Origin: Leucoraja ocellata
Taxonomy: Eukaryota
NCBI GenBank assembly: GCA_036785375.1
Contig: JAWMAR010000032.1
Location: 10,230,001 to 10,294,000 of the forward strand
Direction of reading: 5' to 3'
DNA: 64,000 nucleotides
Shown: positions 1,620 to 61,086 of the stretch, piece after piece
Position numbering within the stretch: position 1 is the first letter of the stretch
How the letters are laid out: the number at the start of each line of letters is the position of its first letter
Notes under the pieces: model-generated
Database searches by the model: none
What the model was told of the DNA's origin: nothing
What the model saw: only the letters and a program-made list of their open reading frames with translations
Translations under genes and position numbers: made by a program

Positions 1620-1775
1620 CAGAACAGCATCTCTGGAGAACAGGAATAGGTGACGTTTTCAGTCGAGACCCTTATTCAGACAGTCAGGGGAAAGTCTGAA
1701 GCAGTGTCTCGAACGTAAATGTCACCTATTCCTTTTCTCCAGAGATGCTGTTTAACCCGCTAAGTTGCTCCAGCT
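1620..1775. mobile_element. Palindromic pLTR-derived element; further copies or single arms at ~5930, 10220, 12851, 15920-16325, 17760, 18350, 18910, 20900, 23005, 23350, 25935, 26550, 31110, 38490, 41820, 44390, 45985, 47000, 48070, 48250, 51350, 53600, 54905, 60410
   Basis: Recurrent motif CTCCAGAGATGCTGCCTGACCCGCTGAGTTACTCCAGCATTTTGTGTC and its reverse complement. Confidence 0.8.
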
Positions 1776-1964
1776 GAGATAGAGCTTAGAGATGGGGTCA
1801 GTGTATGCCTGGAACGGGGATTGTTCGATGTACCCTATAAAGGGGCAGGCCTAGCCAGGGCCCATGCGAGTGCTTATAGCTATGCCTTTGATTTGGAGGA
1901 AGTGGGAGGAGTCGAAGAAGTTGTTGCGAGTAAGGACCGGCTCCGCTAGGTGGAGGAGAGTGTT

Positions 1965-4900
1965 TCTTCTTCTTCTTCTTCTTAAGCCCTTTGCTCCTCT
2001 ATGGAGCATGGGCCATTGGCAAATGTCCTCCACCGCACTCGGTTATTGGCAGTTCTTTTGAGATCTCCCCAGTTGAGCCCACTCTCAGACATTTCTGTCC
2101 CCAGTTGAGCCCACTCTTCTCCAGCAGTTCCTGGGGCGGCCTCTTTTCCTTTTTCCTTGGGGGTTCCATTTCAGGGCTAGCCGGGTGATGTTTGTGGCAG
2201 GTTTCCTGAGGCTGTGTCCAATCCAACGCCATTTTCTCCTTCAAATTTGTAAGTCAATGGGCTCCTGGCTTGTTCTTTTCCACAGGTCCACATTGCTTAC
2301 TTTGTCTCTCCACCAGATGTTATTCTCCTAAGGCAGCTGTTAATGAATGTTTGCAGCCTGTTTGTAGTGTGTTTTGTTGTTTTCCATGTCTCTGATCCAT
2401 ACAGCATCACCTGTTTCACAATTGAGTTAAAGGTGCATATTTTGGTGTTGATTGAGATTGGTGTTTTGAGCTCCAGATCTTCGTGAGCATGTTAAACACC
2501 ACCCTAGCCTTATTGATTCTACTTTTTACATCTACCCCTGCCCCTCCGGTGATGCCCACAACACTGCCTAGGTATGTGAATGTTTCTACCTCCTCTAGAG
2601 CAGTGTTAAGCATAAGGATAGGGTTGCTGGTTTTGGAGTGGATCCTCATCACCTCTGTCTTTGCTGCATTGGGTGTAAGACCAAGTTTTGTTGCAACGTG
2701 TGATAGTCTGTCCATCTTCTCCTGCATTTGCATCTGTGTGTGTAAGGAGAGCTATGTTGTCTGCAAAGTCAAGATCATCTAGCTGCTCCCACATTGTCCA
2801 CTGAATTCCATTTCTTTTCCCTTCAGTTGTTTCCATCATGTTCCAGTCAATTGCCAGGAGGAACAGGAATGGTGACAATAGACATCCCTGCTTGTTGCCC
2901 GTCCCAACACTAAACCTCTGAGTGAGCTGGCCTGCATGCATAACTTTGCATGAGGTTCCATCATACGAGTTCTTGATTAAGTTTATGATCTTGGTCGCAA
3001 TTCCATAGTGGTCCATTAGGCGCCATAGTGTTGTCCTATCTAAGCTGTCAAACGCTTTCTCAAAGTCGATGAAGTTGATGTACATTGTGTTCCATTCAAT
3101 AGACTGTTCAATGATGATGCATAATGTTGCTATGTGGTCTGTGCATGAGCGATCCTTCCTGAATCCTGCTTGCTGGTCCCTTAGCCTCTTGTCTACAGCT
3201 TCCTGAAGACGGTTGAGGATGACCCGGTTGAGAATTTTACTGGGTACAGAAAGTTTGGTGATCCCTCGGTAGTTGTCACATTTTTTTGGCGGTTTCACGA
3301 TGCATCCCTCTGCCCATTCTGTGGGTGTCTTTTCCTCTTCCCAAATTCTCCCAAAAAAGCCACCGAGCATGTCTGTTGATGAGTCTATATCTACTTTCAG
3401 GGCTTCAGGTGGAATATTGTCAGGGTCAGCAGCCTTGCCAGTTTTCCGTTGCTTGATTGGAGCCTTTACTTCTGATTTTGTTGGTCTGTCACATTTAATT
3501 TGTAGTGGTATCCTGGCTATGGGAATGTGTGTCTGTACAGCCGGTGGTGGCCTGTTTAGGACTTCTTCAAAATGTTCTACCCATCTGTCGAGCTGCGCCT
3601 CCTGGGTTTAAAGCAGTTAACCGTTCTTGTCTGTAATTGGTTTATTACTATGCAAACATGTCCGGGACAATTTTCTTATGATGGTATCTAACTCCCTCAT
3701 GTTCCTTTGAATCGCCGCAATGTCTGCCTCTTTGGCTAGCCTCTCCACCTGCGTTCTCTTGTCCCTCCTGATGTTCTGTCGCACTTCTTTGTGGCATCTG
3801 TTGTACTCCTTTTGGGTTCAAGCCTTTTCAGCTCTTGTTCTTCAGTTGTTCACTTTGTCCTTTAACTTTCTCCTCTGTTGGATTGTGTTGAGGGTTTTTG
3901 GTGTTATCCACTCTTTGTGCTTTTGGGTCCTTCTCCCTAGAGTCTCCTCACAGGTTGAGCTCCAAGCAGCTTTTAGGTGTTTCCACTCCTCATTATTGTC
4001 CATCCTTCCTTCCTCCTCCGCTGTAGCTCTGTGTTTTCCCTTGAGAGGGTATCCTTGAAATTCTTCACCACTTTGGAACTACTGAGATATTCAATGTTGT
4101 ATTTAGCTCTTTGACTTTTGGCCTGGAGCTGTCTCTTCAGCCTCAGCTTGAATTTCCCTACCAGGAGGTGGTGGCTTGAAGCTGCGTCTGCTTCTGACAT
4201 CTTCCATGGACCTTCTGAACTTTTTACTGATACAGATGGGGTCAATTTAATTTTCTGTGACATGATCTGATGACACCCAAGTTGTTTTGTAGATTGTTTT
4301 ATGAGGGAATACACTTCCCCAATCACTAGGTTATTGTTAACACAGGTCTCAGCAAACATCTCGCCATTTTCATTCATTTTCCCCACTCCATGCTTTCCCA
4401 TTACAGCCTCATATCCCTCATTTTGGCCTCCAACCTTAGCGTTGAAGTCACCCATGAGGATAATGAGGTCTCTGACTCCAATACGACCAAGTAGATGGTT
4501 CAAGCTGTCATAGAACCTGCCTTTGACCTCATCCTCTGCATCGTTGGTGGGTGCATAAAATTGGATTATGTGGGCTTTCATTCACTTGTTGTTGGTTTTG
4601 AAGGTTGCGGAGAAGAGGTGAGAGCTGATGGGTTCCCATGCCGTTAGAGCCTTTCTAGCATCCTTCATCATCATGATAGCCATTCCCTCTGTATGCTTCG
4701 CTCCCTCCTCTTCCTGTCCGGAGTGGATAATGGACTGCTCGCTGACCAATTTGATCTCCGCTGACTGTGTCCATCTTGTTTCAGCCAAGCCCTGGACTAA
4801 AGGATTGTAGCGCACCATTTTGTTGGCATAATTGTGGCAGCCTTGCCAGCCTGGAACATGGTTCGGATGTACCATGTCCCCACCAGGATAGATTTCTTTG

Positions 4901-5237
4901 TCGTCAGTAGATATGTCAGCTTCCCAGCACCCTTGCAGGTTTGGCTGGGAAGTGTCATGTTCCCCATCGCTGGGGCACCTTCTTCAACCAAGTGTGTAAT
5001 TTGGTTTTCATTTGTCATTGTTTCTGTAACTCACACTGTTTTCCAGGGTGGGGTAGTTAACCCCACGCCCAACCCCCAACCTGGAGGACCAGGGACTGCT
5101 TCGTCTGCCTCCTCACCTGAGAACCTGTCCGGTTTGGTTGAACCTGCCAGGGATATGAAACCCCATCAGACATAGCTCTCAGGATCACTGGAGTACACAG
5201 GCCTCTCCTCCATGGCAAGGTTGCAGCCAGGAGAGGG
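1965..5237 (-). mobile_element. Full-length degenerate RTE-clade LINE (APE endonuclease + RT)
   Basis: 13-bp TSD GGAGGAGAGTGTT at 1952-1964 and 5238-5250; (GAA)n 3' tail at 1965-1983; APE motifs GLAETRW, YAPTND, MGDFNAKVG; RT motifs NYRGI, QAGFRKDRS, FIDFEKAFDS, KQGCLLSP, DLDFAD; several frameshifts and stops. Confidence 0.95.
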
Positions 5238-7569
5238 GGAGGAGAGTGTTAGCTGAGGGAAATTAGTTGGATCTACGGCTGGTTGAGGAAGAAAAAACAG
5301 AAGGCTTGAAGGCCTTCCTGGTAGGGGATGGAGGTGTAGAGTGACTGTATGTCCCTGGTGAAGATGAGGGAACAATGCACTGGAAAACAGAAGACATTAA
5401 AGAGACGAAGGGCTCGTGAGGTATCTTGGACATAGGTTGGGAGGGATTGGACCTGAAGGCACAGGTTTAAGGTGAGAAGGGAGAGATTTTAAGGAGAAGC
5501 AATATTTTCACACAGAGGGTGGTGGGCTAGGCAACAAGCTGCCAGTAAAGGGAAGTACAATCACAGTGTTTAAGAAGTATTCTGATTCTTTTGCGCCACA
5601 AAAGGTATTCTGACGGGATCCACCTTAACCTGGTATGGTAACTGCTCTGTTATTGAACCCACAGAGAGTGATGAACACAGCCCAGTCCATTATGGAGGAC
5701 AGATAACCAGCTATTTAAAAGGCTCATAAACTGTGTTAGTTGGTAACATTTCACCAAAGATTGCAGCTGAATGTGCCATCGGCTCAGTTGTACAATGGTT
5801 CCCTGTCCTGTGTTACACCCTTAAAATGCTGTTAAACAGCTTGGCACAGGAACAGCTCACTGGCACATCACCTATGGGACTATTTACAGCAGATCTAAGT
5901 GCGTTATGTTATCGTCATCTTCTGAAAGCAGTCCTAAGAAAGGTCCCGATCAGAAACGTCACCTATCATTGTCCTCCAGTGATGCTTCCTGACCTGCTGA
6001 GTTACTCTAGCACTTTGTGTTCAATGCAAGATTTCAACATCTGCAGCTTCTTGTCTTAGAATGTTACAGCATGGAAACATGCCCTTCGACCCAACTTGCC
6101 CATACCAGCCAACATGTCCCATCTACACTAGTCCCACCTGCCTGCATTTGTCCCATATCCCTCCAAACCTGTCCTTTCCATTCACCTGTCTAAATGTTTC
6201 TTAAACGAACCGCATCAACTACCTCCTCCAGCAGCTCGTTCCAGACACCCACCACCATTTGTGTGAAAACGTTACCCCTCAGGTTCCTATTAAATCTTTT
6301 CTGCTTCACCTTAAACGTATGCCCGCTGGATCTCGATATGTGTTGAGATTTTATTATTACGTTAGGTAATAATGAAAGGTGAATATTTACAACCTGGGGA
6401 TCTGTTCTAACAGCATGTAGGAAATGCCTGAATTGAATAGTGGGCTACTGAAGGGGAAGGGCATTCCTAAACCTGATATCTTCAAGATCAAAGGCATTAA
6501 ATGCTGTGAACAGCAAAATCTCAAGTTCAACTGGAGGCTAATTATGGCTGCTAAAGGGAATGTGCCCCTCCGTGTATATCCAAAGCCCAGTGAATGCAAG
6601 GTCAAAACAAATCACAATAACATGGATGGCTCTTTACTGGGTTTCCATTGTATCTCATTCAAAGATGCTTTGTGTTAACTGGCAACGTCATTGGTGTCTG
6701 CTCAGTTGTGATCTGTTTTGACCTGGCTGATGTTTGAGCCAGTTATCCATGTGTAACATGTGAGATGCTTGATAGTTCGCTCTTCTTGCTGTAACATCCT
6801 AAAGACAAATGTCTTCACTAAAACACCACACCCTGGTCGTAATTGGACACGGCAATTCCCTTGAAAACACAAACCACTTTATGTATATCAGGAGCCACAA
6901 CAGAGGAGACATCCATTTAAAAATGCATTTTGCCTTTGATGTGCCGTCATAGGCTTTGGCTGCCTGAGGAAGAAAGTGTTGGAAAGAGGTCGTGTTACTC
7001 ACTTGCAGAGGAACCATGATTTACTGATAAGAGTTATAGGGAGTCATACAGCGCAATGTAAAGCCCTTTCTCTTCGACATTTTAATTAACAAGGTGACGA
7101 CAATTTAGAGCTTGGCTTGTGAATGTGCACGACACATGTATCACCAGAGCACTGCAATTCAATGGCTGCGGTTGGAGTGACCAGTTCTGGAGCAACGTGT
7201 TCACACGTGTTCCTTGATCTCTCTTGCCCCGGTGATGTTCCTCACCTAGTCCAATTCTTCCCTTGAAGTAGAACCTACAGGCTCATTCCAATTCAAGGGA
7301 TAATTGGTGGAATGTGAGGGAGGGTCATTGGGGCGAAATTGGTTCTGTTGTGGGCCAGGTCACAGTTTGTATGACACCGTCTAATATGGAAGCTGGATTT
7401 TTATTGAATGCTAGATGTTTACCATGTTTATAAAGTACCAAGTTTTGTAACATTTATTGATAAATGCATTTATTTTAAATCATACCGCATATGAATAGAA
7501 ATTTTAATCAATTATTCTCAATAATAATTAAGAAATCATTTGTCTGTACAATTTTACAGCTCATTTATT

Positions 7570-10205: not shown

Positions 10206-10304
10206 ATTACATAATAACAAGAGAACTACAGATACTGGTATATCTGCCTGACCCACTGAGTAACTCCAACATTTTGTGTCAATCTATGATTATACACCTT
10301 TATA

Positions 10305-12273: not shown

Positions 12274-12497
12274 CTGCCTTCCTCCATTCCAAGACAGATC
12301 GTTGGGCTCTCAGTGGCTTTTGAAGTTGCAGCTTCGGAGTCGGGAAAGACTTTGGCATTTTTGGGTCTGTCTTCACATGGCACATATGCCATGGCCAGTA
12401 TACGAGACTCAACGTTGAAGCATTCGATGACTTTCGGATTGGAGTTGTGAAGTGCGACGATGGTGATCTGCCCCATTTGATTTGTGCAGCTTCCAAT
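12274..12497 (-). CDS. ARHGEF10: ARHGEF10 coding exon (beta-propeller region), last exon found in window
   Basis: gagcag|ATTGGA...GGCAG|gtgaga; 224 nt; IGSCTNQMGQITIVALHNSNPKVIECFNVESRILAMAYVPCEDRPKNAKVFPDSEAATSKATESPTICLGMEEG; I could not find the next exon in 1-12273. Confidence 0.95.
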
Positions 12498-16459: not shown

Positions 16460-16775
16460 GTTTAGTTTAGTTTAATTTGGAGATATGGCTCGGAAACAGG
16501 CCCTTCAGCCCACTGAGTCCTCGCTGACCAGTTATCCCCGCACACTAACACTATCCTACACACACTAGGGACAATTTACTATTATACCAAGCCAATTAAC
16601 CTACAAACCTGTACGTCTTTGGAGTGTGCGAGGAAACTGGAGCGCCAGGAGAAAACCCACGTAAGTCACGGGGAGAACGTACAAACTCCGTACAGACAAC
16701 ACCCATAGTCAAGATTGAACCCGGGTCTCTGGCACTGTAAGGCAGCAACTCTACCTCTGCGCTACCATGCCACCT
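16460..16775 (-). mobile_element. tRNA-derived V-SINE (HE1-like), full length; other minus copies at ~13730, 14075, 14460, 18110, 23625, 25125, 27670, 34610, 37040, 39845, 43710, 45535, 54962, 62820
   Basis: Reverse complement of the SINE consensus with A/B boxes, V-domain and AAACT tail. Confidence 0.9.
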
Positions 16776-16909
16776 GTGTAAGCTCTTGTGAGTACACACA
16801 GGAAACATTGCATGAAACTTCCACACCAAACCTTATCCTCAGGAGAATGAGGATATGTTATATTTCGACATGACTTTAAATAATTCTCACCTATCCGCAG
16901 CAGACTTAC

Positions 16910-38917: not shown

Positions 38918-38929
38918 CTGCAATGAAAT

Positions 38930-47445: not shown

Positions 47446-47624
47446 ATGTGTAGGAAAGAACTGCAGATGCTGGTTTACACCGAAGAATGCTGGAGCAACT
47501 CAGAAGGTCGGGCAGCATCTCTAGAGAAAAGTAATAGGTGACGTTTCGGATCAAGACTTTTCTTCAGACCAAGCTCCAGAGATGCTGCCTGACTCGCTGA
47601 GTTACTCCAGCATTTTGTGTCTAT
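47446..47624. mobile_element. Palindromic Penelope-pLTR-derived element
   Basis: Inverted arms; TSD TCATTGCA at 47438-47445 and 47625-47632. Confidence 0.83.
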
Positions 47625-48996: not shown

Positions 48997-50497
48997 GCAG
49001 CCAGCCTGATCACCCAGTTGCTAAGCACTTTAACTCCCCCTCCCATTCCCACACTGATCTATCTCTCCTGGGTTTCATCCATTGTCAGAGTGAAGCCCGA
49101 CGCAAATTGGAGACAATAGACAATAAGTGCAGGAGTAGGCCATTTGGCACTACGAGCCAGCACCGCCATTCAATGTGATCATGGCTGATCATCCACAATC
49201 GGTACCCCGTTCCTGCCTTCTCCCCATATCCCCTGATTCCCCTATCTAGCTCTCTCTTGAAAGTATCCAGAGAACCAGCCTCCACCGCCCTCTGAGGCAG
49301 AGAATTTCACAGACTCACAACTCTCTGTGAGAAAAAGTGTTTCCTCGTCTCCTTTCTAAATGGCTTACCCCTTATTCTTAAACTGTGGCCCCTGGTTCTG
49401 GACTCCCCCAACATCGGGAACATGTTTCCTGCCTCTAGCGTGTCCAAACCCTTAACAATCTTATATGTTTCAATAAGATACCCTCTCAACCTTCTAAATT
49501 CCAGAGTGTACAAGCCCAGCTGCTCCATTCTCTCAGCATATGTCCCACCATCCTGGGAATTAACCTTGTGAACCTACGCTGCACTCCCTCAATAGCAAGA
49601 ATGTCCTTCCTCAAATTAGGGGACCAAAACTGCACACAATACTCCAGGTGTGGTCTCACTAGGGCCCTGTACAACTGCTGAAGGACCTATTTGCTCCTAT
49701 ACTCGACTCCTCTTGTTATAAAGGCCAATATGCCATTTGCTTTCTTCACTGCCTGCTGTGCCTGCATGCTTACTTTCATAGACTGATGAATAAGGACCCT
49801 CAGATCCCTTTGTACTTCCCCTTTTCCCAACGATGCCATTTAGATAGTAATCTGCCTTCCTGTTTTTTATACCAAAGTGGATAACCTCACATTTAGCCAC
49901 ATTAAACTTAATCTGCCATGCATCTGCCCACTCCCCCAACCTGTCCAAGTCACCCTGCATTCTCATAGCATCTTCCTCACAGTTCACACTGCCACCCAGC
50001 TTTGTGTCATCTGCAAATTTGCTAATGTTACTTTGAATCCCTTCATCGAAATCATTGATGTATATTGTAAATAGCTGCGGACCCAGCACCGAGCCTTGCG
50101 GTACCCCACTAGTCACTGCGAGGAACAGCACCTCATATTTGCTTGGGCAGCTTACAATTTTGGAATATGAATATTGATTTCTCTATCTTCAAGTAACCCT
50201 TGCATCCCTGTCTCTCCATCCCTCTCCCATCCCAGTTCTCCAACTAGTTCCACCGTCCTTCTGATTAAATTTGCTGATTGTATTATTTCGTTGTCATCTT
50301 CCTCATAGCTAACAATCTAACATTTCTGTGGTCATTGTCCCTTTTGACCTGTGTTTTCACACCTTACCCTTCCATATCTCTATCTCTCCCTATCCCCTGA
50401 CTCTCAGTCTAAAGAAGGGTCTCGACCCGAAACGCCACCCATTCGTTCTCTCCAGAGATGCTGCCTGTCCCGCAGAGTTACTCCAGCTTTTTGTCCC
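48997..50497 (+). mobile_element. Penelope 3' fragment (GIY-YIG end + pseudo-LTR), split by a CR1 and inserted in a SINE
   Basis: PDHPVAKHFNSPSHSHTDLSLLGFIHCQSEARRKLE resumes as EEQHLI at 50120; pLTR at 50400-50495; CCAAAGACC at 48988-48996 and 50498-50506. Confidence 0.85.
49113..50119 (-). mobile_element. CR1 LINE 3' kilobase inserted into a Penelope fragment
   Basis: [33 protein letters not shown] with frameshifts; (TATTGTC)n-like tail; GAG duplicated at the junctions. Confidence 0.92.
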
Positions 50498-50887
50498 CCA
50501 AAGACCTGTGCGTTAATTGGCCTTTGTAAATTGCCTCTGACATTAAGGGAGTGGACTTGAAACTGAAAACCAGGGTAAACAGATTTTGTAGACTGTTTTT
50601 AGCTTACGTTTTTAGCCAAAGTCCAAAAGCATGTTTGCTGCATCAGGTTGAGAGGATTATCTCCTGAAATGGTGTGAAGCAGTTACAAAAAGATTATGTT
50701 GACTTCCATGCCAGCTGACAGATTCAATCCCAGCAATTTCTTGCCTGAAGTCATGAAAGACTATTGACTTGGTGTTAATTTGAATCTGGCTTTTCATTTA
50801 TTTTGCTGAATGGTCACCGTGGACTGGATGAGTCGAAGTACCTGTTTCCATGCTGTGCATTTGGATCAGTCAAACCTAAAGTTGTAC

Positions 50888-51058
50888 CTTGTTCAAGTAA
50901 CGTTCATTCATGGCTTTTGCGATCTGTTTCATTTCACATCGCTGATCTGCTTCCCGCTTCTGCTCGTTTAGTTTCTCGGCTAATGTTTCCAGTTCAGTGA
51001 GTGCCATCTGGAGAGGGAGTCTGTCGGGATGTCCCCGTGGGGTGTTTCTCAGCATGTC
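50888..51058 (-). CDS. ARHGEF10: ARHGEF10 coding exon (end of DH domain)
   Basis: ccccag|GACATG...AACAAG|gtacaa; 171 nt; [57 protein letters not shown]. Confidence 0.96.
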
Positions 51059-51469
51059 CTGGGGAAAGCAATCAACAAACACAGAGTCACGCGGAAGGCA
51101 GGTTTAGGAGTACCCCGCTTTATAACTGGATTATTTATGTTTGATTTTGGTAACATTCATGAGGATCACAAAACTGCTTTGATCCAGTATGGACAAATAA
51201 TGCCAAAACAAATCACCACCAAATTTTACGGGATTGGAAATGTAAATCATTGGCATATTGAAGAGTGGCAACTATTAAGTTTATGATGTTCATTCATCAC
51301 AAGGTTAATGAATGGTGGTGGTTCTACGGAAGAGCAATGGTCTTACTGAGGCACAAGAGACTGCAGATGATATAATCTTAAATAAAAGGGGAACTGGTGG
51401 AGGAACTCAGCAGGCCAGGTAGCATCTGCGGAGGGGAAAGAACAACCATGTAGGGCGGAGAGATCCAGG

Positions 51470-52315
51470 AGTGCAGGCACAGTGTTCTCTGAAAGCAGTG
51501 TCACAGGTAGATAGGGTGGCCAAGCAGGCTTTCAGTCAGCATATCAAGTAAAGAAGTTGGAAGCTAGACACAAAAAGCTGGAGTAACTCAGCAGGACAGG
51601 CAGCATCTCTGGAGAGAAGGAATGGGTGACCTTTTGGGTCGAGACCCTGCTTCAGCCCATTCCTTCTCTCCAGAGATGCTGCCTGTCCTGCTGAGTTACT
51701 CCAGCATTTTGCGTCTACCTTCGATTTAAACCAGCATCTGCAGTTCTTTCCTACACATTGAAGTTGGAAAGTTATATTACAGCTGTACAAGATGTTGGTG
51801 AGGCGGTATTTGGTGTACTGTGTTCAGAATTGGTCACCCCGCATTAAGAAAGATGTCATTATGCTGGAAGGAGTACAGAGAAAATTTATGAGGATGTTGC
51901 CATGACTTGAGGGCCTGAGCTATAGGAAGAGTTTGGGCAGGCTAGGACTTTATTCCTTGAAGCACAGGAGGCTGAGGGGTGATCTAGAAGAGGTGTATAA
52001 CATCATGAGGGGAATAGATGGTGTGAATGCACAGAGCATGTTATAGAGTAGGGGGATCAAGAACTAGAGGACATAGGTTTAAGGTGAGATGGGAACAATT
52101 TAATAGCAACCTGAGGGACAACTTTTTCACATTGCGGGTGGTGGATATATGGAACGTGCTGCTAGAAGAGGTAGTTGAGCCAGGTGCTATAACAACATTA
52201 GAAAGATACTTGGATGGGTTCATGGATAGGAAAAGTTTAGAGGGATATGTGCCAAATGTGGATAAGTGGGACTAGCTTAGATGAGAAAGTTGGTCTGTAG
52301 GGCTGGTTTCCATGT
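51470..52315 (+). mobile_element. CR1/HER1 LINE 3' fragment interrupted by a palindromic element
   Basis: LQLYKMLVRRYLVYCVQNWSP-like sequence; GGSRTRGHRFKVR...FFTLRVVDIWNVL. Confidence 0.82.
51563..51759. mobile_element. Palindromic Penelope-pLTR-derived element
   Basis: Near-perfect ~60-bp inverted arms; TSD GAAGTTGGAA at 51553-51562 and 51760-51769. Confidence 0.87.
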
Positions 52316-52719
52316 TTTGGGTTGGGACCCTGGGCAGAGTAGGCAAGGGTCGGTGAATAGCCTCGTCCGACATCTTCCGTGACATTGATCAGGCGAAGGA
52401 TACAAGTGCTCTTGAGTGGGGTACATTTGTATGTTCGGCATGTTTATAAGTTGATGCAATGCTGGGAAGGGATAGTACTGGCCATTCACATTCCCTCTGA
52501 TGAATAGTAGGGTGAAAGGTACTCCTGATGCCTCACGTGCAAGAGCAGAGAACAATGACCAACACCGTGAGCTGGCCTAGAGCACTGCCCAGTCCGTAAG
52601 TAGGATGGAGCCACACGCTAAGGATGTGGCTGGTACACGACGGCATAATAAAACAGAATCCCAAAGGGCCAGATCAAAATATTCATCAGGTATGAAACAT
52701 AAATGTCATAGAGAATTAT

Positions 52720-53135
52720 TGAATCATACAGTGTGGAAACAGGCCCTTTTGGCCAAACTTACCCATGCCGATCAACATGCCCCATCTACACTAGTCCCAC
52801 CTTCCCGCACTTGGCCCATATCCCTCTAAACCCTGTCCTATCCATGTACCTGTCCAAATGTATCTTAAGCATTATGATAGTACCTGTCCCAACTACCCCT
52901 TCCAACAGCTCGTTCCATACACCCACAATCCTTTGTGTAAAAATGTTACCCCTCAGGTACTTTTTAAATGTTAAACCTATGTCCTCTGGTTCTCGATTCC
53001 CCTACTCTGGGCAAAAGACTGTGCATTTACCCTATCAATTCCTCTCATGATCTTATACACCTCTCTACAATCACCTCTCATCCTCCTGTGCTCCAAGGAA
53101 TAAAGTCCTAGCCTACTAAATCTCTCCCTATAGTC
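52720..53135 (-). mobile_element. CR1/HER1 LINE 3' fragment
   Basis: HER1-type 3' end (GGCC..AAGGGCCTGTTTCCACACTGTATG on the minus strand) plus ORF2 C-terminal remnant. Confidence 0.8.
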
Positions 53136-53268
53136 CTGGAAATTATAGCTTATTCAGATGGTCAGTGTGGTTTTCAGAAGGGGAAATCTTGGTTGCCAAA
53201 GTGGAAATAAGATAGAAGAATCAGCTGTATTTGCAAAAGCAATGTTTCCAGTTTTTGACAGAAAGTAC

Positions 53269-53599
53269 CGATTTACTGACAGGGTGATGGGTGAGGTGAG
53301 AAATGAAGCAGGTATACCAACACGTTTTTTTAATAATTATTTGTCGATTTTTTCTTTTTCTTTTTTTAAGTTTTTACTTACTCACTCTGTGACTACACTC
53401 TTTGGTAGTTTAGGGGTTCTATTTTTACACATTCACTCTCTCTTTCACTTTCTTTCTTTCTTGCTCTTTCTCTCTTTGTCGATTTCATTTTTGTTAAAAT
53501 TAAAATGGAAGATGTACAATAAATGTATTATGTCATATGCCGCGGTTTATACTATTGTACACTGCTTCTAATTTTCAAAAAATGTTTTAATTAAAAAAA
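53269..53599 (+). mobile_element. Poly(A)-ended retro-insertion (L1/Tx1-like 3' UTR fragment)
   Basis: 12-bp TSD GACAGAAAGTAC at 53257-53268 and 53600-53611; T-rich body, AATAAA at ~53518, A-rich end. Confidence 0.65.
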
Positions 53600-54684
53600 G
53601 ACAGAAAGTACTGGTGTAACTCAACTTGTCAGGCAGCATCTCTGGAGAATACGGCTAGGTGATATTTTTGGTCCGAACCTTTCCCGACATCCCGACCCGG
53701 AATGACACCTATCCATGTTCTCCAGAAATGCTGCTTGACCGGCTGAGTTATTCGAGCACCATGTGTCTTTTTTATAAACCAGCATCTGCAGTCTTTTGTG
53801 CCCTCATTTCCATTTTGAAATGGCCTTTGGGTGAATTGTGATGGACAGCACTTAGCTGTTGATTCATAAACTCAAGAGACATAATTAGATCAGTCAATAC
53901 TTTCAGCAATGATTGAACTCATATCCTTGGAATACTAATGCTTTGGTCCCTCTGGTTACCTGTTGTGGATAATCTGAGGCTCAGGAAGATATTTGCCCTC
54001 TCTACGCCAACCATAAGGAAAGAGATCTCTGGATTATCTGATCTTTTCGCCAATTATGCATAAAGTACTAAACTGAATATCTTGTAAGTCATAGGATCAG
54101 AAGTAAGCCATTCAGCCCATCGAGTCTACTCTGCACCAAGTCATTTCCTCGGACGAAACAGGAGAATGGGACACCTAGAAAGGCTCAAATAGTGAATGGC
54201 CTGGATAGAGTGAATGTGGTGAGAATGTTTCCAGTAGTGGGAGAGTCTAGGACCAGAGGCCATAGCCTCAGAATAAAATGAAGTGCCTTTAGAAAGGAGA
54301 TGAGGAGGAATTTCTTTAGGCAGAGGGCGGATAATCTGTCGAATTCATTGCCACAGACGGCTGTTGAGGCCATGTCAATGGATATTCTTAATGAAGATTA
54401 ACAGATTCTTGATTGGTAAGGATATCAGGGGTTATGGGGTGAAGGCAAGAGAATGGGGTTGAGAGGGAAAGATAGACCAGCCATGACCTGATGGACCAAA
54501 TGGTCTAAATCTGCTCCAAGTATTCATGAACTTATCATGCGGTAAGGAGTGGAAACAAAGATTTGTGCTTTTCATTTTTTCACAAGACTTAGTCTGAGAT
54601 AACAACAAAGGACGAATGTTGTTACAATGCTCTATCTTATCGAACAAACAGTGACTCTCCCTTCACTGAGTGAACAATACCTAC

Positions 54685-54777
54685 CTGGAGTAGAAGAATG
54701 AACTGTGGAAACCGTTGAATTGGCTTCATCACCAAGCCATAGAAAGTAATCCGATCAGAGCTCGACTCGTGGCAGTT
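54685..54777 (-). CDS. ARHGEF10: ARHGEF10 coding exon (DH domain, KPIQRFPQ motif)
   Basis: ccacag|AACTGC...CTCCAG|gtaggt; 93 nt; [31 protein letters not shown]. Confidence 0.95.
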
Positions 54778-55409
54778 CTGTGGTGGAAGGAAACATTTGT
54801 TAGTGTGGTCGGCAGATAGTCAGTGCTTGGTTGGGTGCAGCGAGTTTAACTAACACTTGAAATAAACTCTGCAGCTGTACAGAAGAACAACTTTATCTTC
54901 GCAAGATAACAAGAAACTGCAGATGTCTAAATCCTAAGCAAAACTCAAAGTGCTTTCGTAACTCACAAACCTGCATGCCTTTCGAATGTGGGAGGAAATC
55001 GGGACACCCAGAGAAAACCCATGCAGTCACAGGGAAAAGGTACAAACTGGACAGACAGCACCCGAAGCCAGGATCAAACACGGCCTTCTTGCGCTGTACG
55101 GCAGCAGCTCTATCACTGCACCACTGTGCCTCCCTGTAAAATCCCTGTAAAGGTGTGTAGTGTTTCAATGGGATCCGATTCAATTCCAAGGTATAAGCAG
55201 CATCGATAAGATGCATCGCTGCATCTGATCAATGAATCAGTCTAGCAGACATGTTGAACTTCCAAGGAATTTGGTCATAGGGTGAGATGTGAAGAAAGTA
55301 AGGACCATTGATTTTCATGTGGAGTAAGTAAGGAGCACTGACAATGCTGGCAATAAATCAGCCACAAAGGTAAGGTGTGAAAGTAACTCCATTCATTGCT
55401 GTTCAAGTA

Positions 55410-55476
55410 ACTCAGCCACTGTTTTCTTTCTCTAGTGCCACAATCACTCAGCCACTGTTTTCTTTCTCTAGTGCCA
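55410..55476. repeat. Tandem duplication, 31-bp identical copies with a 36-bp period
   Basis: ACTCAGCCACTGTTTTCTTTCTCTAGTGCCA at 55410-55440 and 55446-55476. Confidence 0.92.
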
Positions 55477-57606
55477 GAGATGGAAGAAGCAAGTTTTCTA
55501 ACCACCATCTGACTAAGATGGAATCGGTAGTGCTACAAATAATGGGGAAGCAGAAGAATGGTTCAATGGGGCTTTTATAATCACATCTGCAAAGTACAAA
55601 CGCACAGTGACAGTCTTTTCTGACGAACAGTCCAGTGGAGTATTCCCATACCCAAGCACATCCCTGATTAGTACAGAAATAGACAGCTGGAAACAGTTCT
55701 GGGCACCTCAAGAAATTAGTGTGCAAGATGGGTGGATAGGACCAACATAGTTAAGAAGGCTTAGGGCATGCTTGCCTTCATCGGTCGGGACATCGAGTAT
55801 AAGAGTCAGGAAGTCATGTTGCAGCCTTATAAAAGTTAAGGTTACTTTTGAAGTATTGTGTGTAGTTCCGGCCACTGCATTACAGGAAAGATGTGGAGGC
55901 TTTAGAAAGGTTCACCCCAGAATATTACCTGGATTAGAGAGTATTAGATATAAGGGGAAGTTGAACAAACTTGGATTGTTTTCTCTGGAGCGCCAAAGGC
56001 TGAGGGGCGCCCTGACAGAAATTTATAAAATTATAACAATCATGGATTGGAAAGATATCCATTGACTTGGCATCCACAACCTTCCGTGGCAAATAATTCC
56101 ACAGATTCACCACCCTCTGAAATTCCTCCTCATCTCCTCGCTGAAGAAACATCCTTTAATTCTGAGGCTATGACGTCTAGTCCTAGATTCTCCCACTCAT
56201 GGAAACAACCTCTCCACATCAAGTTCAAGTGAGTTTATTGTCATGTGTCCCTGTATAGGACAATGAAATTCTTGCTTTGCTTAAGCACACAGAAAATAGT
56301 AGGCATTTATTACAAAACAGATAAATGTGTCCATATACCATGATATAAATATATACACACATGAATAAATAAACTGGTAAAGTGCAAATAACAGAAAGTG
56401 GTTATTAATAATCTTTGTCCGAGCCAGGTTTAATAGCCTGATGGCTGTGGGGAAGTAGCTATTCGTGAACCTGGTTGTTGCAATCTATCCCAGCCTTTCA
56501 CTATTCGGTAAGTTTCAATGAGGTTTCCCCTCATCCTTCTCAACTCCAGCGAGTACAGGCCCAGTGCCATCAAAACGCTCATCATAGGTTATGATCGATT
56601 TTTTAATCTGAATATCTGATCAATATTTCCTTCTCAACCCTATTCTCTTACCTTCTCCCCATAACCCTGACACCTGTACTAATCAATAATCTATCCATCT
56701 CTGTCTTAAAAATATCCATTGATCCACTGCTGCTGTGTTTTGCCTTCTGTCTGGGGCAGTGACTACATGCCATGGGATCTCAGCAGTGTCAGGACAAGAC
56801 TGGAGTATTTTTGTATCAAGGTTGTTCACTGAGAAAGGGAGAGAATTCATGCCCATGTGCTCCACGTAGGCCCAAGCAAAACCGCAAAATGAAGAAGCAA
56901 GAGAAGGAACTAAGGGTACAAAATGTTGGGGCGGGGAGAGGTGAAAGATACATCAACAAATAAACCATCGGCTCTGTCCACACAAATATAGGGCAGCAGA
57001 AAGCAAAGAGATGCAAAGAATGAGTATTTTGAACACAGATGTTTGCCAAAGTACGAACAGTTGTGGAAAAAAGCAATTTTAAGAAAGGTAAATAACGCCG
57101 TAGCTCATATATGAGTATACGTTTGTCTAATTAGAAGGTAAAGATGAAAGGATTGCTTACTTGTTAATCCATTGTGAACAGGGACCAATGATTCTACCAC
57201 CCTGGAAGTCAAGCATGGCTGATGAGTGAGGAGTCAGGGTGCATGGAGTGTCAGGGCAGCACAGTGGCGCAGCTGATAGAGCTGCTGCCTCATAGCACCA
57301 CACCTGGGTTCGACCCTGAACTTGGGTTCTGTCTGTGTGGAGTTTGCACGTTCTCCATGTAACCATGTTTGTTTTCCCCGGATGCTCCAATTTCTTCCCA
57401 CACTCCACAAATGTGCAGGTTTGTAGATTAATTGTTCCCTTGTGTGTGTAAGGAGTGGAACTAGGGTGAACGGATGATTGAACGGATCGTGGACGGTGGG
57501 CCGAAGGACCTGTTTCCATGTTGTATCTCCTAACTAAGAAACTAAACTAAACTCACAGAACGCCAGTGCACACCAAACATGTACTTATGTGTACCATCTT
57601 TCCAAG

Positions 57607-57835
57607 ATAGACACAAAAATCTGGAGTAACTCAGCGGGTCAGACACCGGGTCAGACACCTTCTCTGGAGAAAAGGAATTGGCGACGTTTCGGGTCAAGAC
57701 CCTTCTTCAGGTCTCGACCCGAAACGTCACCTATTCCTTTTCTCCGGAGATACTGTCTGACCCGCTGAGTTACTCCAGCTTTTTGTGTCTATCTTCGGTT
57801 TACACCAGCATCTGCAGTTCCTTCTTACATGTCTT
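57607..57835. mobile_element. Palindromic Penelope-pLTR-derived element with hammerhead-like cores
   Basis: Inverted arms GACACAAAAA.CTGGAGTAACTCAGCGGGTCAG...GACGTTTCGGGTC / GACCCGAAACGTC...CTGACCCGCTGAGTTACTCCAGC; TSD TCTTTCCAAG at 57597-57606 and 57836-57845. Confidence 0.88.
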
Positions 57836-57951
57836 TCTTTCCAAGCTTGAGGACATACAGCAATGAGCCCAATCACTTTGGTCCCATTTTGATGTGCATT
57901 ATAAATAAAAACTAAAACAATATTTTACCTCTAGTCAGACACTTCACTTAC

Positions 57952-58068
57952 TTTCAAAAATTCCAGAAAGGCAGGTTTGGTGGCACAGACTTTCTTCAGA
58001 ATTCCCATGGCAGTGCTAAAATTGTTCACATACTCACTGTATGCGTCAAGTACCATTGACTTCGAAAA
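57952..58068 (-). CDS. ARHGEF10: ARHGEF10 coding exon (DH domain)
   Basis: ttgcag|TTTTCG...TTGAAA|gtaagt; 117 nt; FSKSMVLDAYSEYVNNFSTAMGILKKVCATKPAFLEFLK (inside ORF 57931..58131). Confidence 0.96.
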
Positions 58069-58193
58069 CTGCAATGGAAAGAAAGTTACAGCTCCATCAA
58101 CACCATCTATTCGTTTGACATCATCCATCACATGGAAAAGTTTGATAAATGAATGAATGCAAGGTGTGTTTATTGTCTAACCTAATGTATTTT

Positions 58194-58282
58194 GTATATT
58201 AAGTTGCAAGTATAAGTATATTAAGTTGCAAGTATTTAAGTATAAGTATAAGTTAGGTATAAGTATATTAAGTTGCAAGTAC
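58194..58282. repeat. AT-rich tandem repeat (TATATTAAGTTGCAAG / TATAAG units)
   Basis: Directly visible repeats. Confidence 0.8.
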
Positions 58283-60569
58283 CTGTATTTAAATGCATTT
58301 GAGTTGCTGAAATGGATCTGAAGGTGAAATGTTTCTTTCGAGCACAAACGAAATGATTGTTTTTATAAGTCTACTTCAAAAAGAAATTCAGGGCAAAATT
58401 CTGTCGACATCTGCTTTAGTGAACACTCAGTGCTGTGAGCTTTCTGTTGAACTACTGTGCCAAACAACCCGTTCATTTTACTGATTAAGCAAAATCTTCA
58501 ATTGTTTTTAATGGATGTTGGAAAGACAAGGTGAAAAGGCCTCATATCTGAAAGATGCTAATCAAACACTTCAGCAAATACCAGTGGCACAGTGGTGCAG
58601 CGGTAGAGTTGTTGCCTTACAGCGCCAGAGACCTAGGTTCAATCCTGACTATGGTGCAGTCTGAATGTTTTTTTTAAATACTCCCTGTGACCACGTGGGC
58701 TTTCACAGGGTGTTCCAGTTTTCAACCACATCCCAAAGACGTCACGTTTGTCGATCAATTGGCGTCTGCAAATTGTCCTGAATGTGTAGGATAGAACTAG
58801 TGTATGGGTAATCGTTAGTTGGCGTGGACTCGGTGGGCCGTAGGGCCTGTTTCCATGCTGTATCTCTAAAACTACATAGTTATATCTCAGCATTTTGAAC
58901 CATCTTCCTGAAATGTGCATGGATACACAACGACACAGAGTTTAAGAGCGTACCACCATTCTTCCAAAATATTATTGAACAATTGGTATTTCTGTGTTTT
59001 TGAGGTTCATTTTGAATTCCATTATCAATGGTGAGTTTCTGTTTGTGGAGGAATAAATTATCCAAACCTGAAGCTTAAAGATTGCTGCCAGAGGAGGTAG
59101 TTGACGCCGATACTACAGCATAATTTAAAGAACACTTGGACAGGTACATGGATAGGAAAGGTTTAGAGGGATATGGGCGAAATGCAGGCAAGTGGAGCCA
59201 GTGTAGATGGGGCATATTGGCTGCATGGGCAAGTTGGGCCGAAGGGCCTGCTTCCATGCCATGTGACTCTGTGACTTTAGTCTTGAAAAAAATTATTTTG
59301 AAATGTGTTTTGTTTTATTTTTATTTAAAAGTAGAGCAGAATCTGATGATCTCTGCTGGAATCACTTAACAATTTTACAGCATCTCCCTGCAAAGAGTAC
59401 CAAGACTTTCATTTCCAGTGACATGTCATTATACCTAATCTGTACCATCTTCACTTGTTATACAAAGATGCATTCACAACGATGGTGCGTAGAGTGTTTG
59501 AGTTATAAGGAGAGGCTGGATAGGTTGTTACCATTTACCACGGAACATAGGAGACTGAGGGGTTACCTTTATATAGATTTATAAAATCATGAGGGGCCTA
59601 AATAAGATGGATTGTCATCATCTTTTCCCCAGACCTGAGGAGTCTAAAACTAGAGGACTTAGATTTAATGGGAAGCTGAGAGGTATGTTTTTCACACAGG
59701 AGATGGTGGAACGAGTTGCCACATTAAGTGGTAGAGTCATGTACAATTACAATGGTTATACCTGTACATGTATAAGGGTGGCACAGTGGCGCAGCACTAG
59801 AGTTGCTGCCTTACAGTGCCAGAGAACCAGGTGTGATCCTGTTTATGTTGAGTTTATGCATTCTTCCTGTGACTGCGTGGGTTTTCTCCAGGTGCTCCGG
59901 TTTCCTCCCACACTCTAAAGACATGCAGGTTTGTCGGTTAATTGGCTTCGGTAAAAATTGTCCCTAATGTGTGTAGGATTATGTTAGTGGATGGGCTGAT
60001 TGCTGGTCGGCGCAGACTCGATGGGCCGAAGGGCCTATTACCACGCTCTATCTCTAAAGTGTAAGGCCATGCGGACTAGTTAATGGAAAGGAAAAGATTG
60101 GAGGCATATGTGCCAAATGCAGGCCAGTGGAGTGATGTCATTGGTCGTTGGTCATCATGGATGAGTTGGGCCAAAAGGCTTTTTCCATGCTGCAAGACCC
60201 TCTGACTCTGTGTCATTCATGTGTGATACGGTGCGGCTGTACCTCTGCTCAGTTTGTCTCTATATCACTTTGTTCCAACTCATGGCTTATAAACTATTAC
60301 CTTGTGACTCTGGTCTGCTTCCTATCACAAGCAATCCCTCTGTTGTAGCCACCTCTTTCCCTTGCTACAAAATGATCATCTTCTCACTGTGCCAGCTCTG
60401 ATGGAGGCTCCTTGATCCAAAACATTGATCCCTGCTGATGCTGTCTGACTGGCTGGGTACTTCCAGCATTCCCTGGTATTTTAAATTCAATACATTTTCC
60501 AAGATAATTCTCCCAAGCACCATTGGCTCTGCATCAACAACCATGTTGGAGTTTCTTTCACGGACTTAC

Positions 60570-60749
60570 GGAGGCAACAAAGACATCACCAATCATTTCA
60601 ACCGAGTCCCACTCAGTCACACGGCTGGCTAGGGCGATCTGGAACAAGGAATGGCACTGGAGGATCTCCTTAATTCGGTAAAATACCATTTTGAGTTTCC
60701 TTTCGCTTAATAGTTTAGGGTCCATCTCTGAAAGAGGTTTCTTGTATTG
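60570..60749 (-). CDS. ARHGEF10: ARHGEF10 coding exon (DH domain)
   Basis: ccgcag|CAATAC...GCCTCC|gtaagt; 180 nt; [60 protein letters not shown]. Confidence 0.96.
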
Positions 60750-60847
60750 CTGCGGAGAGAGAAAGGCTAAACAAAATCAAACCATAAAGACTTTCTGCAA
60801 ACGATTTCAAAACTGGTGTCCTCAGCACAACACTGTACAGTATTGTG

Positions 60848-61086
60848 TGTTGGAGAGAACTGCAGAAGTTGGTTCACACCAAAGATAGATACAAAGTGCT
60901 GGAGTAACTCAGCGAATCAGGCAGCATCTCTGGAGAAAAACAATGGGTGACATTTTGGGTCGGAACAACTCCCCCCAAGCTGTACTTTCAGTCTGAAGAA
61001 GGGCCCCGACCCGAAACATCACCCATTCTTTTTCTCCAGAGATGCTGCCTGACCCGCTGAGTTACTCCGGCACTTTGTATCTATCT
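60848..61086. mobile_element. Palindromic Penelope-pLTR-derived element
   Basis: Inverted arms; CTGAAGAAGGGCCCCGACCCGAAACATC; imperfect 16-bp flanking repeat ACTGTACAGTATTGTG / ACTGCACAATATTGTG. Confidence 0.85.

Follow-up and report, generated by a model that had tools for sequence, protein, structure and literature searches.

Short palindromic repeats in introns of a skate ARHGEF10 gene, best read as ultra-short two-ended insertions of a Penelope-type element

A 64-kb stretch of skate DNA (the window, from which all counts below are taken) contains numerous small hairpin-shaped intronic repeats, raising the question of whether they represent a palindromic element that is copied as such or a by-product of the insertion of a known one. 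A preliminary description had regarded them as a non-coding, SINE-like and Penelope-dependent element carrying paired hammerhead ribozymes, an interpretation which our analysis partly supports. The repeats themselves are confirmed and are best read as ultra-short two-ended insertions of an ordinary Penelope-type element (PLE) rather than as a new element.

Abundance and source of the arms

We searched the whole window with a profile built from 13 arms at a threshold of E ≤ 0.01, identifying 48 arms that fall into 35 loci, each 47-248 bp long (Table 1), compared with the roughly 30 copies originally estimated, while the same profile gave no arm match in each of five shuffled windows or in the reversed window. 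Thirteen loci are head-to-head two-arm palindromes, in agreement with the initial observation of frequent inverted arms, and 22 are single arms; an additional clipped arm at 517-545(-) lies beyond the profile loci. Together the loci cover 4,435 bp; the main SINE-like family has 23-26 loci occupying 3.7-4.6 kb, and the proposed SINE-comparable density was therefore borne out. ARAGORN returned no genes when a tRNA origin of that SINE-like family was considered. There were no tandem arm arrays among the 13 Tandem Repeats Finder rows for the window, and a loose direct arm pair at 48069/48255 is without a TSD. A literature search, Repbase and Dfam being outside its scope, found no published description of the arm family. 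From its protein match the host gene is identified as ARHGEF10 of cartilaginous fish, and none of the arm loci overlaps its mapped exons.

Table 1 Arm loci, Penelope copies and host gene in the window (TSD, target-site duplication; positions are those of the window)
Position	Strand	Feature	TSD	Source
517..1964	-	broken Neptune-type copy: RT remnant, thumb, degenerate CX4CxxC linker, GIY-YIG-type endonuclease		
1624..1774		palindrome, both outer ends clipped; replaces ~170-190 nt of RT in long Penelope relic	none	
5252..5560	-	upstream RT piece of the 517..1964(-) Penelope copy		
5936..6052	+	single arm, partial tail		profile search
10244..10290	+	single partial arm		profile search
12276..62700	-	ARHGEF10, 13 mapped exons, aa 452-1031 of thorny-skate protein		
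12851..12945	+	single arm, short end, starts at model -1	candidate, 7 bp exact or 9 with one mismatch	
15923..15980	+	single partial arm		profile search
16078..16238		old palindrome, both outer ends clipped	not found	
17755..17824	+	single old arm		profile search
18344..18406	+	single partial arm with tail		profile search
18918..19146		old-subfamily palindrome, - arm tailed	not found	
20902..21065		palindrome, + arm tailed, - arm clipped	not found	
21211..21406		palindrome, + arm tailed	10 bp, 21201-21210 / 21407-21416	
23003..23101	+	single arm with tail, start at model 30		
23353..23483	+	single arm with tail	candidate, 8 bp exact or 12 with one mismatch	
24910..25033		palindrome, - arm tailed	13 bp, 24897-24909 / 25034-25046	
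25955..26035	-	single old arm, ARHGEF10 exon 40 nt away		
26562..26636	-	single partial arm with tail		profile search
30343..30560		palindrome, + arm tailed	10 bp, 30333-30342 / 30561-30570	
31109..31195	-	single arm, short end	candidate, 7 bp exact or 10 with one mismatch	
32413..32590	-	Penelope 3′ end: ~135 nt of 3′ UTR and clipped arm		
37598..38236	+	5′-truncated copy: endonuclease region, 3′ UTR, arm from 38147 with short end	13 bp, 37585-37597 / 38237-38249	
38480..38608	+	single arm with tail		profile search
41894..41985	+	single arm, partial tail		profile search
44395..44510	+	single old arm, pyrimidine-rich upstream		
45962..46143		palindrome, both arms partly enter tail (exception or ambiguous)	no clear TSD	
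47005..47104	-	single arm, partial tail		profile search
47446..47624		palindrome, - arm tailed	8 bp, 47438-47445 / 47625-47632	
48069..48178	+	single arm, partial tail		profile search
48255..48347	+	single old arm, 76 nt downstream of 48069..48178 arm, same orientation		
48930..49154	+	Penelope endonuclease fragment without arm		
50120..50496	+	Penelope 3′ end: final endonuclease codons, 3′ UTR, arm at 50410		
51360..51433	-	single old partial arm		profile search
51563..51759		palindrome, + arm tailed	10 bp, 51553-51562 / 51760-51769	
53591..53795		palindrome, + arm tailed	not found	
57607..57835		palindrome, + arm tailed	10 bp, 57597-57606 / 57836-57845	
60411..60471	+	single weak old arm, E 2e-4		profile search
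60848..61091		palindrome, - arm tailed	7 bp exact or 11 with one mismatch	

The arm corresponds to the 3′ pseudo-LTR (pLTR) of a Neptune-type Penelope, whose 3′ UTR it follows at four loci, and the suggested Penelope origin is upheld. At three of these, 517-545(-), 38147(+) and 50410(+), GIY-YIG-type coding sequence lies further upstream, while at 32413(-) only UTR precedes the arm. The arm had been described as directly following Penelope GIY-YIG sequence at ~520, 38145 and 50400; the association holds at all three but is not direct, a 3′ UTR of roughly 230-250 nt lying between endonuclease coding sequence and arm (~250 nt, then the clipped arm at 545-517, in the 517..1964 copy). A non-LTR element with a 13-bp direct repeat is inserted between the two pieces of that copy. 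Using P0001 and full-length relatives as tblastn queries we located RT, thumb and endonuclease at 741-1964(-) and endonuclease at 37533-37929(+); RT and GIY-YIG are thus present upstream of the terminal repeat in longer copies and not in the mini-inserts. P0001 has a Pfam GIY-YIG match at cut-off, and the full-length relatives contain RT, a CX4CxxC linker and GIY-YIG. The CX2-5CxxC linker, a mark of Neptune/Nematis (PMC8557442), occurs in P0001 and six full-length relatives and is degenerate in the frame 985-1317(-). The predicted source of the arms is an EN+ Neptune-type PLE, assigned by this linker, a mark common to Neptune and Nematis. Inverted 5′-truncated copies with a one-sided tail and variable TSDs were found, as in Neptune-type insertions, although none of the four longer copies displays the textbook combination of an inverted arm and a long copy. 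Arm-bearing copies range from ~50 bp to more than 1 kb in length.

The hammerhead core

The arm unit comprises a minimal type I hammerhead, a spacer of ~65 nt and an optional tail of ~35 nt. Column majorities match the published consensus at the core boxes, the extra base, the G-C-closed stem II and the palindromic 15.2-16.2 positions, and three core As carry 2 mismatches in 105 as against 71 in 452 at other A columns, supporting the original identification of the core as a minimal type I hammerhead and predicted ribozyme. A minimal-hammerhead descriptor passed two arms in the window and none in 100 shuffles. A passing core lies on the + arm of 60848..61091 (at 60993), and the best-preserved minimal hammerhead is that of the - arm of 57607..57835 (core start 57710, 5-bp stem II). 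Helix I is only 2 bp and loop 2 is 2-4 nt. The helix I/II covariation score of 0.125 was matched by 351 of 500 shuffles, the 29 of 49 arms used being dead copies of one family with little power, and RNAalifold predicted no pairs in such an alignment.

The presence of paired hammerhead cores had been overstated, as none of the 13 palindromes has two intact cores and only three reach the CUGANGA box on both arms. Nor do functional ribozyme pairs appear likely: the arms lie on opposite strands, the single sense core of a folded transcript would pair with its antisense counterpart, and most cores are decayed.

Ends, junctions and the formation of palindromes

All six TSDs named in the preliminary description are exact and 8-13 bp in length, whereas mismatched-flank controls (n = 156) reached at least 8 bp in two cases and 10 bp in none; the palindromes that carry them were therefore inserted as units, as had been proposed. 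Six of the 13 palindromes have only 4-6 bp of flanking repeat. The TSDs are 65 % AT compared with 57 % for the window. Their length varies (7-13 bp) with no sign of the fixed length of a DNA MITE, and a transposase-mobilised MITE, despite the short, dense and palindromic inserts and a near-intact Tc1/mariner ORF within the window, is refuted by these TSDs together with asymmetric ends, the inverted repeat stopping ~35 nt before one terminus; we give it practically no weight. Arm lengths and junctions also vary, and the sequence is that of a PLE 3′ end, so that retrotransposition is retained from the earlier account.

The claim of a tail on one arm only stands for ten of the 13 palindromes. Those at 1624 and 16078 are clipped at each outer end, and 45962, where both arms partly enter the tail, is a possible exception that may have a tail on both. 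Every TSD-bounded palindrome (7/7) pairs one long end (model 127-129) with one short end (86-95), which has p = 0.008 if ends are independent at 50:50; TSD-bounded non-palindromic copies have the short end at 12851..12945 and 38147 and the long end at 23353. The inner ends of all 26 palindrome arms lie between model -31 and +42 (three were adjusted by eye for the junction and end comparison), the + arm of 60848..61091 retaining ~31 nt of upstream UTR. Eleven of 29 junction- or TSD-defined ends fall at -4..+3 (p 2e-5 versus uniform, the interval being chosen post hoc) and only two at +27..+31, the hammerhead cut site (p 0.56). Random 5′ truncation accounts neither for the pile-up at -4..+3, just upstream of the ribozyme core, nor for the -31..+42 range; both suggest either a short, defined RNA or a strong stop.

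No two of the 13 central junctions are the same. Several fall within self-complementary motifs, namely stem II at 20.9k and 21.3k and, at 24.99k in a palindrome whose hammerhead is gone, the internal quasi-palindrome at model 41-50. Arms are 83 % identical within a locus and 77 % between loci (permutation p 1e-4), as expected from one insertion event per locus, a similarity confounded by age and possible gene conversion. On a tree of 84 columns and 37 of the 48 arms, which has no starred branch, palindrome arms are unclustered (14 label changes versus a shuffled mean of 12.3), and palindromic, single and UTR-bearing arms have subfamilies in common, with weak support.

Because the 13 junctions differ and the arms intermix on the tree, each palindrome was probably assembled at insertion and not copied from a palindromic SINE-like master; the separate palindromic element of the preliminary description does not survive this comparison. 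A SINE-like family with its own fixed-boundary source lineage was likewise rejected on the distinct junctions and the lack of palindrome-arm clustering on this weakly supported tree. A master whose hairpin transcript, with paired ribozymes, is copied whole would agree with the TSDs of whole palindromes and with their stable predicted hairpins (-59 to -144 kcal/mol). Such a master is nonetheless largely refuted and very improbable, given the distinct junctions, the lack of two intact cores in any palindrome, the pairing of the core with its antisense and 5′ ends that do not gather at the cut site.

We consider it reasonably likely that each palindrome represents a standard PLE insertion in its shortest form, with an inverted 5′-truncated copy lying head-to-head with a direct one. 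The target was cut with a 7-13-nt stagger, which yielded the variable TSDs observed here. By analogy with the biochemistry of anole Poseidon, the RT-endonuclease may extend both nicked strands and initiate internally on the RNA, at one site on either side of the tail; that chemistry was obtained in vitro, with start sites equal between strands. Synthesis would begin at the long site (model ~128) on one strand and at the short site (~93) on the other, in keeping with the pairing of ends, and both cDNAs would stop after 45-130 nt, mostly at the 5′ edge of the hammerhead, before being joined end to end, often via small self-complementary motifs of the arm. Single arms may reflect the same process with one productive primer and UTR- or ORF-bearing copies a longer run. 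Almost all copies would be dead on arrival, with the ribozyme selected in the source elements and not in these copies. It is possible, if rather speculative, that a PLE dimer makes the long site on one strand and the short site on the other obligatory, that the RNA 5′ end lies at an initiator overlapping the hammerhead, where a strong stop would precede the joining of the cDNAs, and that arms keeping that edge could recycle as a tRNA-free SINE-like class.

A somewhat unlikely alternative is a self-standing SINE-like pLTR RNA of ~130 nt that starts near model -3, is transcribed from arms with the 5′ edge kept, either by read-through or by means of an initiator-type promoter inside them, and uses the Neptune protein in trans, palindromes again forming at insertion. 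The concentration of 5′ ends at -4..+3 and the 31 of 35 loci without a detected long UTR are consistent with such an RNA, as are the internal TATA-less promoter of the D. virilis Penelope pLTR (PMC2377424) and published non-autonomous pLTR derivatives (bioRxiv 10.64898/2026.07.22.740005; Chlamys, PMC8557442). A candidate initiator with a 7/7 match is centred at -3 in five of the seven arms keeping upstream sequence, with MTE-like (6-9/12) and DPE-like (2-4/5) matches at textbook spacing (consensus PMC1475891). However, each shuffled window contains 3-9 instances of this promoter-like triple, which was chosen post hoc, the seven tested arms all fall short of at least one of the three promoter thresholds, and the same bases form a polypyrimidine-plus-AG splice acceptor, as before the D. 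virilis hammerhead. Mini-arms are moreover intermixed with UTR-bearing copies on the tree, and initiation in the 5′ pLTR of an autonomous transcript would give an identical short cDNA. Fold-back, in which a cDNA or antisense template would bend back at a short internal palindrome and prime its own copying, as argued for rotifer PLEs (PMC3846280), would explain junctions within self-complementary motifs and derived bases common to the arms of one locus. In 8 of 11 cases the short arm extends further 5′ than the tailed one, which rules out simple fold-back starting from the latter. Fold-back also leaves without explanation why the copied arm stops at the end site of single TSD-bounded copies, and at 57.6k two subfamily-type sites (model 29 and 32) distinguish the arms, which suggests two templates; we regard fold-back as improbable.

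Every structural feature described here is already in the PLE literature, opposite-strand minimal-hammerhead pairs having been noted in 2014, and the value of the locus is as a dataset, a dense record of PLE insertion. For inverted pLTRs, self-priming was proposed in 2013 (PMC3846280), and the both-strand extension reported in vitro in 2024 was not tied to inverted repeats (PMC11167929); short, complete, TSD-bounded inserts make the origin of inverted pLTRs and one-sided tails countable from one assembly. Were the strong-stop reading true, ~0.5 loci per kb would imply a very large number of events per skate or ray genome, providing a readout of nick stagger, start-site pairing, template number and RNA 5′ end and a direct test of how PLE inverted pLTRs and tails arise. 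Thirteen long intronic hairpins in one gene are also plausible substrates of ADAR or small-RNA pathways and may influence splicing, and repeat libraries for sharks and rays may list short palindromes of this kind wrongly, as MITEs or unknowns.

Comparison with known systems

In L1 twin priming, primers from both nicked strands are used and an inverted 5′ part is joined via short homology. The palindromes resemble its products in their inverted part and in the proposed use of two nicked-strand primers and short-homology joining, but both arms here copy the same 50-100 nt, whereas L1 mostly copies non-overlapping parts of one RNA. Non-LTR retrozymes, reported in one chondrichthyan genome, are similarly non-coding, PLE-pLTR-related and dispersed as monomers with a type I hammerhead (bioRxiv 10.64898/2026.07.22.740005; PMC7761336). 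They form direct tandem repeats with a hammerhead per unit and circles, in contrast to the inverted arms seen here, whose defined 5′ ends mostly lie off the cut site, and we rejected this class as such repeats were absent from the Tandem Repeats Finder output for the window.

The core shares with minimal hammerheads the CUGANGAH box, the extra base before stem II, the G-C closing pair, GAAA, the palindromic CG, the UH cut site and a pyrimidine-rich 5′ flank (PMC4209133). It differs in its 2-4-nt loop 2 and in a helix I of 2 bp rather than the usual 3-5 bp, a length that also occurs in the Drosophila virilis, Culex and Oikopleura rows of Fig. S3 of that study. Dispersed single minimal hammerheads and opposite-strand pairs were interpreted there as truncated PLEs (Cervera and De la Pena 2014, PMC4209133), with no cartilaginous fish in the searched text of one of the two supplementary files.

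Poseidon_Ac (PAc) of the green anole has the same order of hammerhead, short RT start, tail and long start and similarly AT-leaning targets, and its RT, a predicted dimer, extends both strands from two start sites flanking the tail (PMC11167929). It belongs to another clade (Poseidon) and shows no strand difference in start site, unlike the consistent pairing of long and short ends here. The closest resemblance is to EN+ Neptune PLEs, with a pLTR after a GIY-YIG-type endonuclease, a CX2-5CxxC linker, strong 5′ truncation (PMC8557442, PMC3846280) and a pLTR hammerhead. PLE insertions comprise an inverted 5′-truncated copy with a 30-40-bp tail at one end (PMC8557442), and solo pLTRs, head-to-head junctions and TSDs of 8-10 bp are likewise on record (PMC3846280); the anatomy of the skate repeats is of this standard kind. 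The skate inserts differ in that both copies are reduced to 45-130 nt and enclose no ORF in any of the 13 palindromes, and in that they are as dense in the window as its main SINE-like family.

Arm family and its host gene

We built a profile from 13 copies of the arm (a hammerhead, a ~65-nt spacer and an optional ~35-nt tail), identifying 48 matches in the 64-kb window and none in five shuffled windows or the reversed window used as controls. The matches form 35 loci totalling 4,435 bp, of which 13 are head-to-head palindromes and 22 are single arms. This is comparable to the main SINE-like family of the window (23-26 loci), as the preliminary description had claimed, any genome-wide copy number being an extrapolation from this one intronic window only. 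All six target-site duplications (TSDs) named in that description are exact and 8-13 bp in length. A seventh palindrome, at 60.8k, has a TSD of 7 bp exact or 11 bp with one mismatch, while flank comparison revealed none at the remaining 6/13 palindromes; among 156 mismatched-flank controls 2 reached 8 bp and none reached 10 bp. Arms diverge from the column majority by a mean of 16% (range 4-33%), indicating that insertion was spread over a long period.

An exon-containing frame of the window matches ARHGEF10, its best matches being cartilaginous fishes with thorny skate at the top, and 13 exons of the thorny skate protein map to the minus strand between 62700 and 12276. No overlap was found between the 35 arm loci and these 13 exons. 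Arms at 21407, 25955, 60471, 60845, 18918, 38608 and 57831 lie 24-121 nt away from ARHGEF10 exon boundaries, a distance at which they could impinge on splice signals. On the plus strand, which is antisense to ARHGEF10, lie 16/22 single arms, a borderline excess by hand estimate which could reflect loss of sense copies with acceptor-like sequence. Smaller fragments of non-LTR reverse transcriptase (RT) are numerous across the window, alongside the larger repeats listed in the table.

Coordinates of Penelope-like and other repeat features in the window
Feature	Position	Strand	Remarks
PLE protein-relative match	741-1964	-	protein mapping
PLE protein-relative match	5252-5560	-	protein mapping
PLE protein-relative match	37533-37929	+	protein mapping
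PLE protein-relative match	48930-49154	+	protein mapping
PLE 3′ UTR	545-790	-
PLE 3′ UTR	37915-38146	+
PLE 3′ UTR	50180-50408	+
PLE 3′ UTR	32461-32590	-
Extra clipped arm	517-545	-
Penelope relic	517-5560	-	split by 3.3-kb non-LTR RT element (RT frame 2606-3607) with 13-bp direct repeat at 1952/5238, and by clipped palindrome at 1624-1774
Clipped palindrome	1624-1774		replaces about 170-190 nt of Penelope RT; TSD absent
Young palindrome	57601-57831		left arm with 12-bp internal duplication
Two arms, same direction	48069-48347	+	76-nt pyrimidine-rich spacer; only retrozyme-like pair in window
Tc1/mariner (Sleeping Beauty-like) transposase	8205-9236	+	open 343-aa frame, HTH and DDE domains; probably inserted recently
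RT frame of another non-LTR element	35228-36295	-	355 aa
Inverted repeat pair	23739-24272		130-350 nt apart; in or beside SINE-like family copies
Inverted repeat pair	34438-34662		as preceding
Inverted repeat pair	36838-37077		as preceding

Penelope origin and hammerhead core

Judged from its sequence context, the arm is the 3′ pseudo-LTR (pLTR) end of a Penelope-like element (PLE), since it follows a PLE UTR at four loci and the PLE copy at 37.6-38.2k, which has its own 13-bp TSD, terminates at the short end of the arm. At 517, 38147 and 50410 the endonuclease stop is followed by a UTR of ~230-250 nt and then by the arm, and the arm at 32413 is preceded by about 135 nt of UTR. The arm had been described as directly following Penelope GIY-YIG sequence at ~520, 38145 and 50400; the two are indeed linked there, but with the UTR of ~230-250 nt between them. 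Pfam searches of four window frames of the broken PLE gave no GIY-YIG match, and the identification therefore rests on relatives. P0001, a protein related to the GIY-YIG-like window frames, matches Pfam GIY-YIG and leads to full-length RT-endonuclease proteins carrying a CX4CxxC linker, a type reported to mark Neptune and Nematis PLEs (PMC8557442). Arm-bearing copies span about 50 bp to >1 kb, and TSDs were not found at the 50.1-50.5k copy, the 32.4k copy or the 48069/48255 pair. Divergent overall, the four PLE 3′ UTRs nevertheless have in common one short block of conserved sequence, about 110-130 nt 5′ of the hammerhead; their profile recovered just its four inputs from the window. Pyrimidine-rich flanks at 25955, 44395 and 48255 may be older UTRs.

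The column majorities of the arm comprise a CUGANGA box, an extra A, a 5-bp G-C-closed stem II, GAAA, a CG palindrome and a UC cut site, in agreement with the published min-HHR consensus (PMC4209133) and bearing out the proposed identity of the core as a minimal hammerhead. Helix I is only 2 bp, for which the alignment in PMC4209133 offers precedent. The three core As show 2/105 mismatches compared with 71/452 in the remaining A columns (Fisher p 2e-5), a contrast suggesting that the source elements were under selection; for the CUGA columns the figure is 7/105, a value biased by the way matches are called. Neither a covariation signal nor a consensus structure was found in the arm alignment, and five single arms folded no better than shuffles (z 0.07-0.91). 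The core is spanned by 13/48 arms, five of them without core mismatch over the covered positions. Two arms passed a hammerhead descriptor that none of 100 shuffles passed. Rfam at gathering thresholds returned no matches in the whole window. Relaxed to E<=10 over 57.5-61.2 kb, the Rfam search added only three miRNA-hairpin matches below threshold, a reflection of the palindromes.

The paired hammerhead cores of the preliminary description are an overstatement, as both arms reach the CUGA box in only 3/13 palindromes and none of the 13 has two intact cores. Folding of five whole palindromes gave long hairpins (-59 to -144 kcal/mol) with the sense core paired to its own antisense, so two ribozymes arranged in this way would not work jointly in cis.

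Palindrome formation and the 5′ ends of arms

The palindrome had also been taken for a separate SINE-like element, and here the evidence speaks against it. Central junctions are distinct in 13/13 palindromes (inner ends at three arms, 18918, 51655 and 60.9k, were set by eye), and palindrome arms are unclustered on a weak tree of 37/48 arms without a starred branch, from which 11 arms too short were left out (14 label changes, shuffled mean 12.3). On this weakly supported tree the UTR-bearing arm at 50410 is placed with two singles and the 51.6k palindrome, and palindromic and single arms are also mixed in an older subfamily. Arm identity is 83% within loci compared with 77% between loci (p 1e-4, with age and conversion as confounders), as expected of one insertion event.

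In all seven TSD-bounded palindromes one arm ends at position 127-129 of the arm profile (the long end, with tail), whereas the short end of the other lies at 86-95 (92-95 in six of the seven); if the two ends were picked independently at 50:50, long and short pairing in 7/7 would have p 0.008. Among TSD-bounded copies that are not palindromic, both kinds of end occur. The anole Poseidon protein, a predicted dimer, is reported to cut and extend both strands, with RT starting at two internal sites flanking the tail; the hammerhead is protein-dependent, and in vitro insertion does not require it (PMC11167929). As the simplest synthesis we infer that two cDNAs, one per nick and per start site, would be joined end to end, a proposal of our own that is absent from the available text of PMC11167929. 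Self-priming or fold-back, following the antisense self-priming idea in PMC3846280, is a minor rival: the tail-less arm extends further 5′ than the tailed arm in 8/11 cases, and since fold-back from the tailed arm cannot yield a longer tail-less one, it is excluded in these eight. Two subfamily-type sites distinguish the arms of the 57.6k palindrome, a hint that two templates were used; at these sites the 20.9k palindrome has the same variant on both arms. Perfect 8-bp complementarity between arm middle and tail (model 47-54 with 105-114) and a small hairpin at 64-79, just 5′ of the short end, are candidate RT-binding structures.

Taking the C of the CUGA box as +1, all 26 palindrome arm 5′ ends lie within -31 to +42, and 11/29 defined 5′ ends fall at -4..+3 (p 2e-5 against uniform, for a window chosen post hoc). 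Hammerhead cleavage was rejected as their origin, the cut position holding only 2/29. The pile-up may instead mark an RNA start at an initiator, a splice acceptor or RT stalling at the ribozyme fold. Positions -5..+2 match the initiator consensus in 5/7 arms keeping those bases, followed downstream by weak matches of MTE- and DPE-like type, and the pLTR of D. virilis Penelope contains an internal promoter (PMC2377424); however, each shuffled window contains 3-9 promoter-like triples and 0/7 arms meet all three thresholds, leaving the promoter motifs a lead only. The same bases can be read as polypyrimidine plus AG, and in D. virilis the hammerhead marks the end of the intron (PMC4209133). A spliced template was considered on this account, and inspection of the junctions by eye revealed no upstream exon common to them. 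An RNA start would fit an autonomous transcript initiated in its 5′ pLTR copy, or else a short RNA that is truly non-autonomous; the latter keeps alive the SINE-like reading, which we consider improbable.

Comparison with known elements

A MITE is ruled out, as the ends are asymmetric and the TSDs variable. Retrozymes are defined as tandem arrays (bioRxiv 10.64898/2026.07.22.740005; PMC7761336), and with no tandem array of arms in the window the family does not fit that definition; the chondrichthyan families of the retrozyme preprint may include this arm. Our literature searches returned no description of the arm family from cartilaginous fishes, although Repbase, Dfam or PMC5785218 may already hold it; the word Penelope does not occur in the main text of the little-skate genome paper, and the available parts of PMC4350176 and PMC12910113 contain nothing specific to it. 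The anatomy of arm and palindrome is already published for PLEs, including an inverted 5′-truncated copy with a 30-40-bp tail at one end (PMC8557442, PMC8969392), head-to-head junctions, 8-10-bp TSDs and solo pLTRs (PMC3846280), and dispersed single min-HHRs with opposite-strand pairs (PMC4209133). The arm is a real feature of a known kind, and its modest interest lies in the dense record that it offers of how PLEs integrate.
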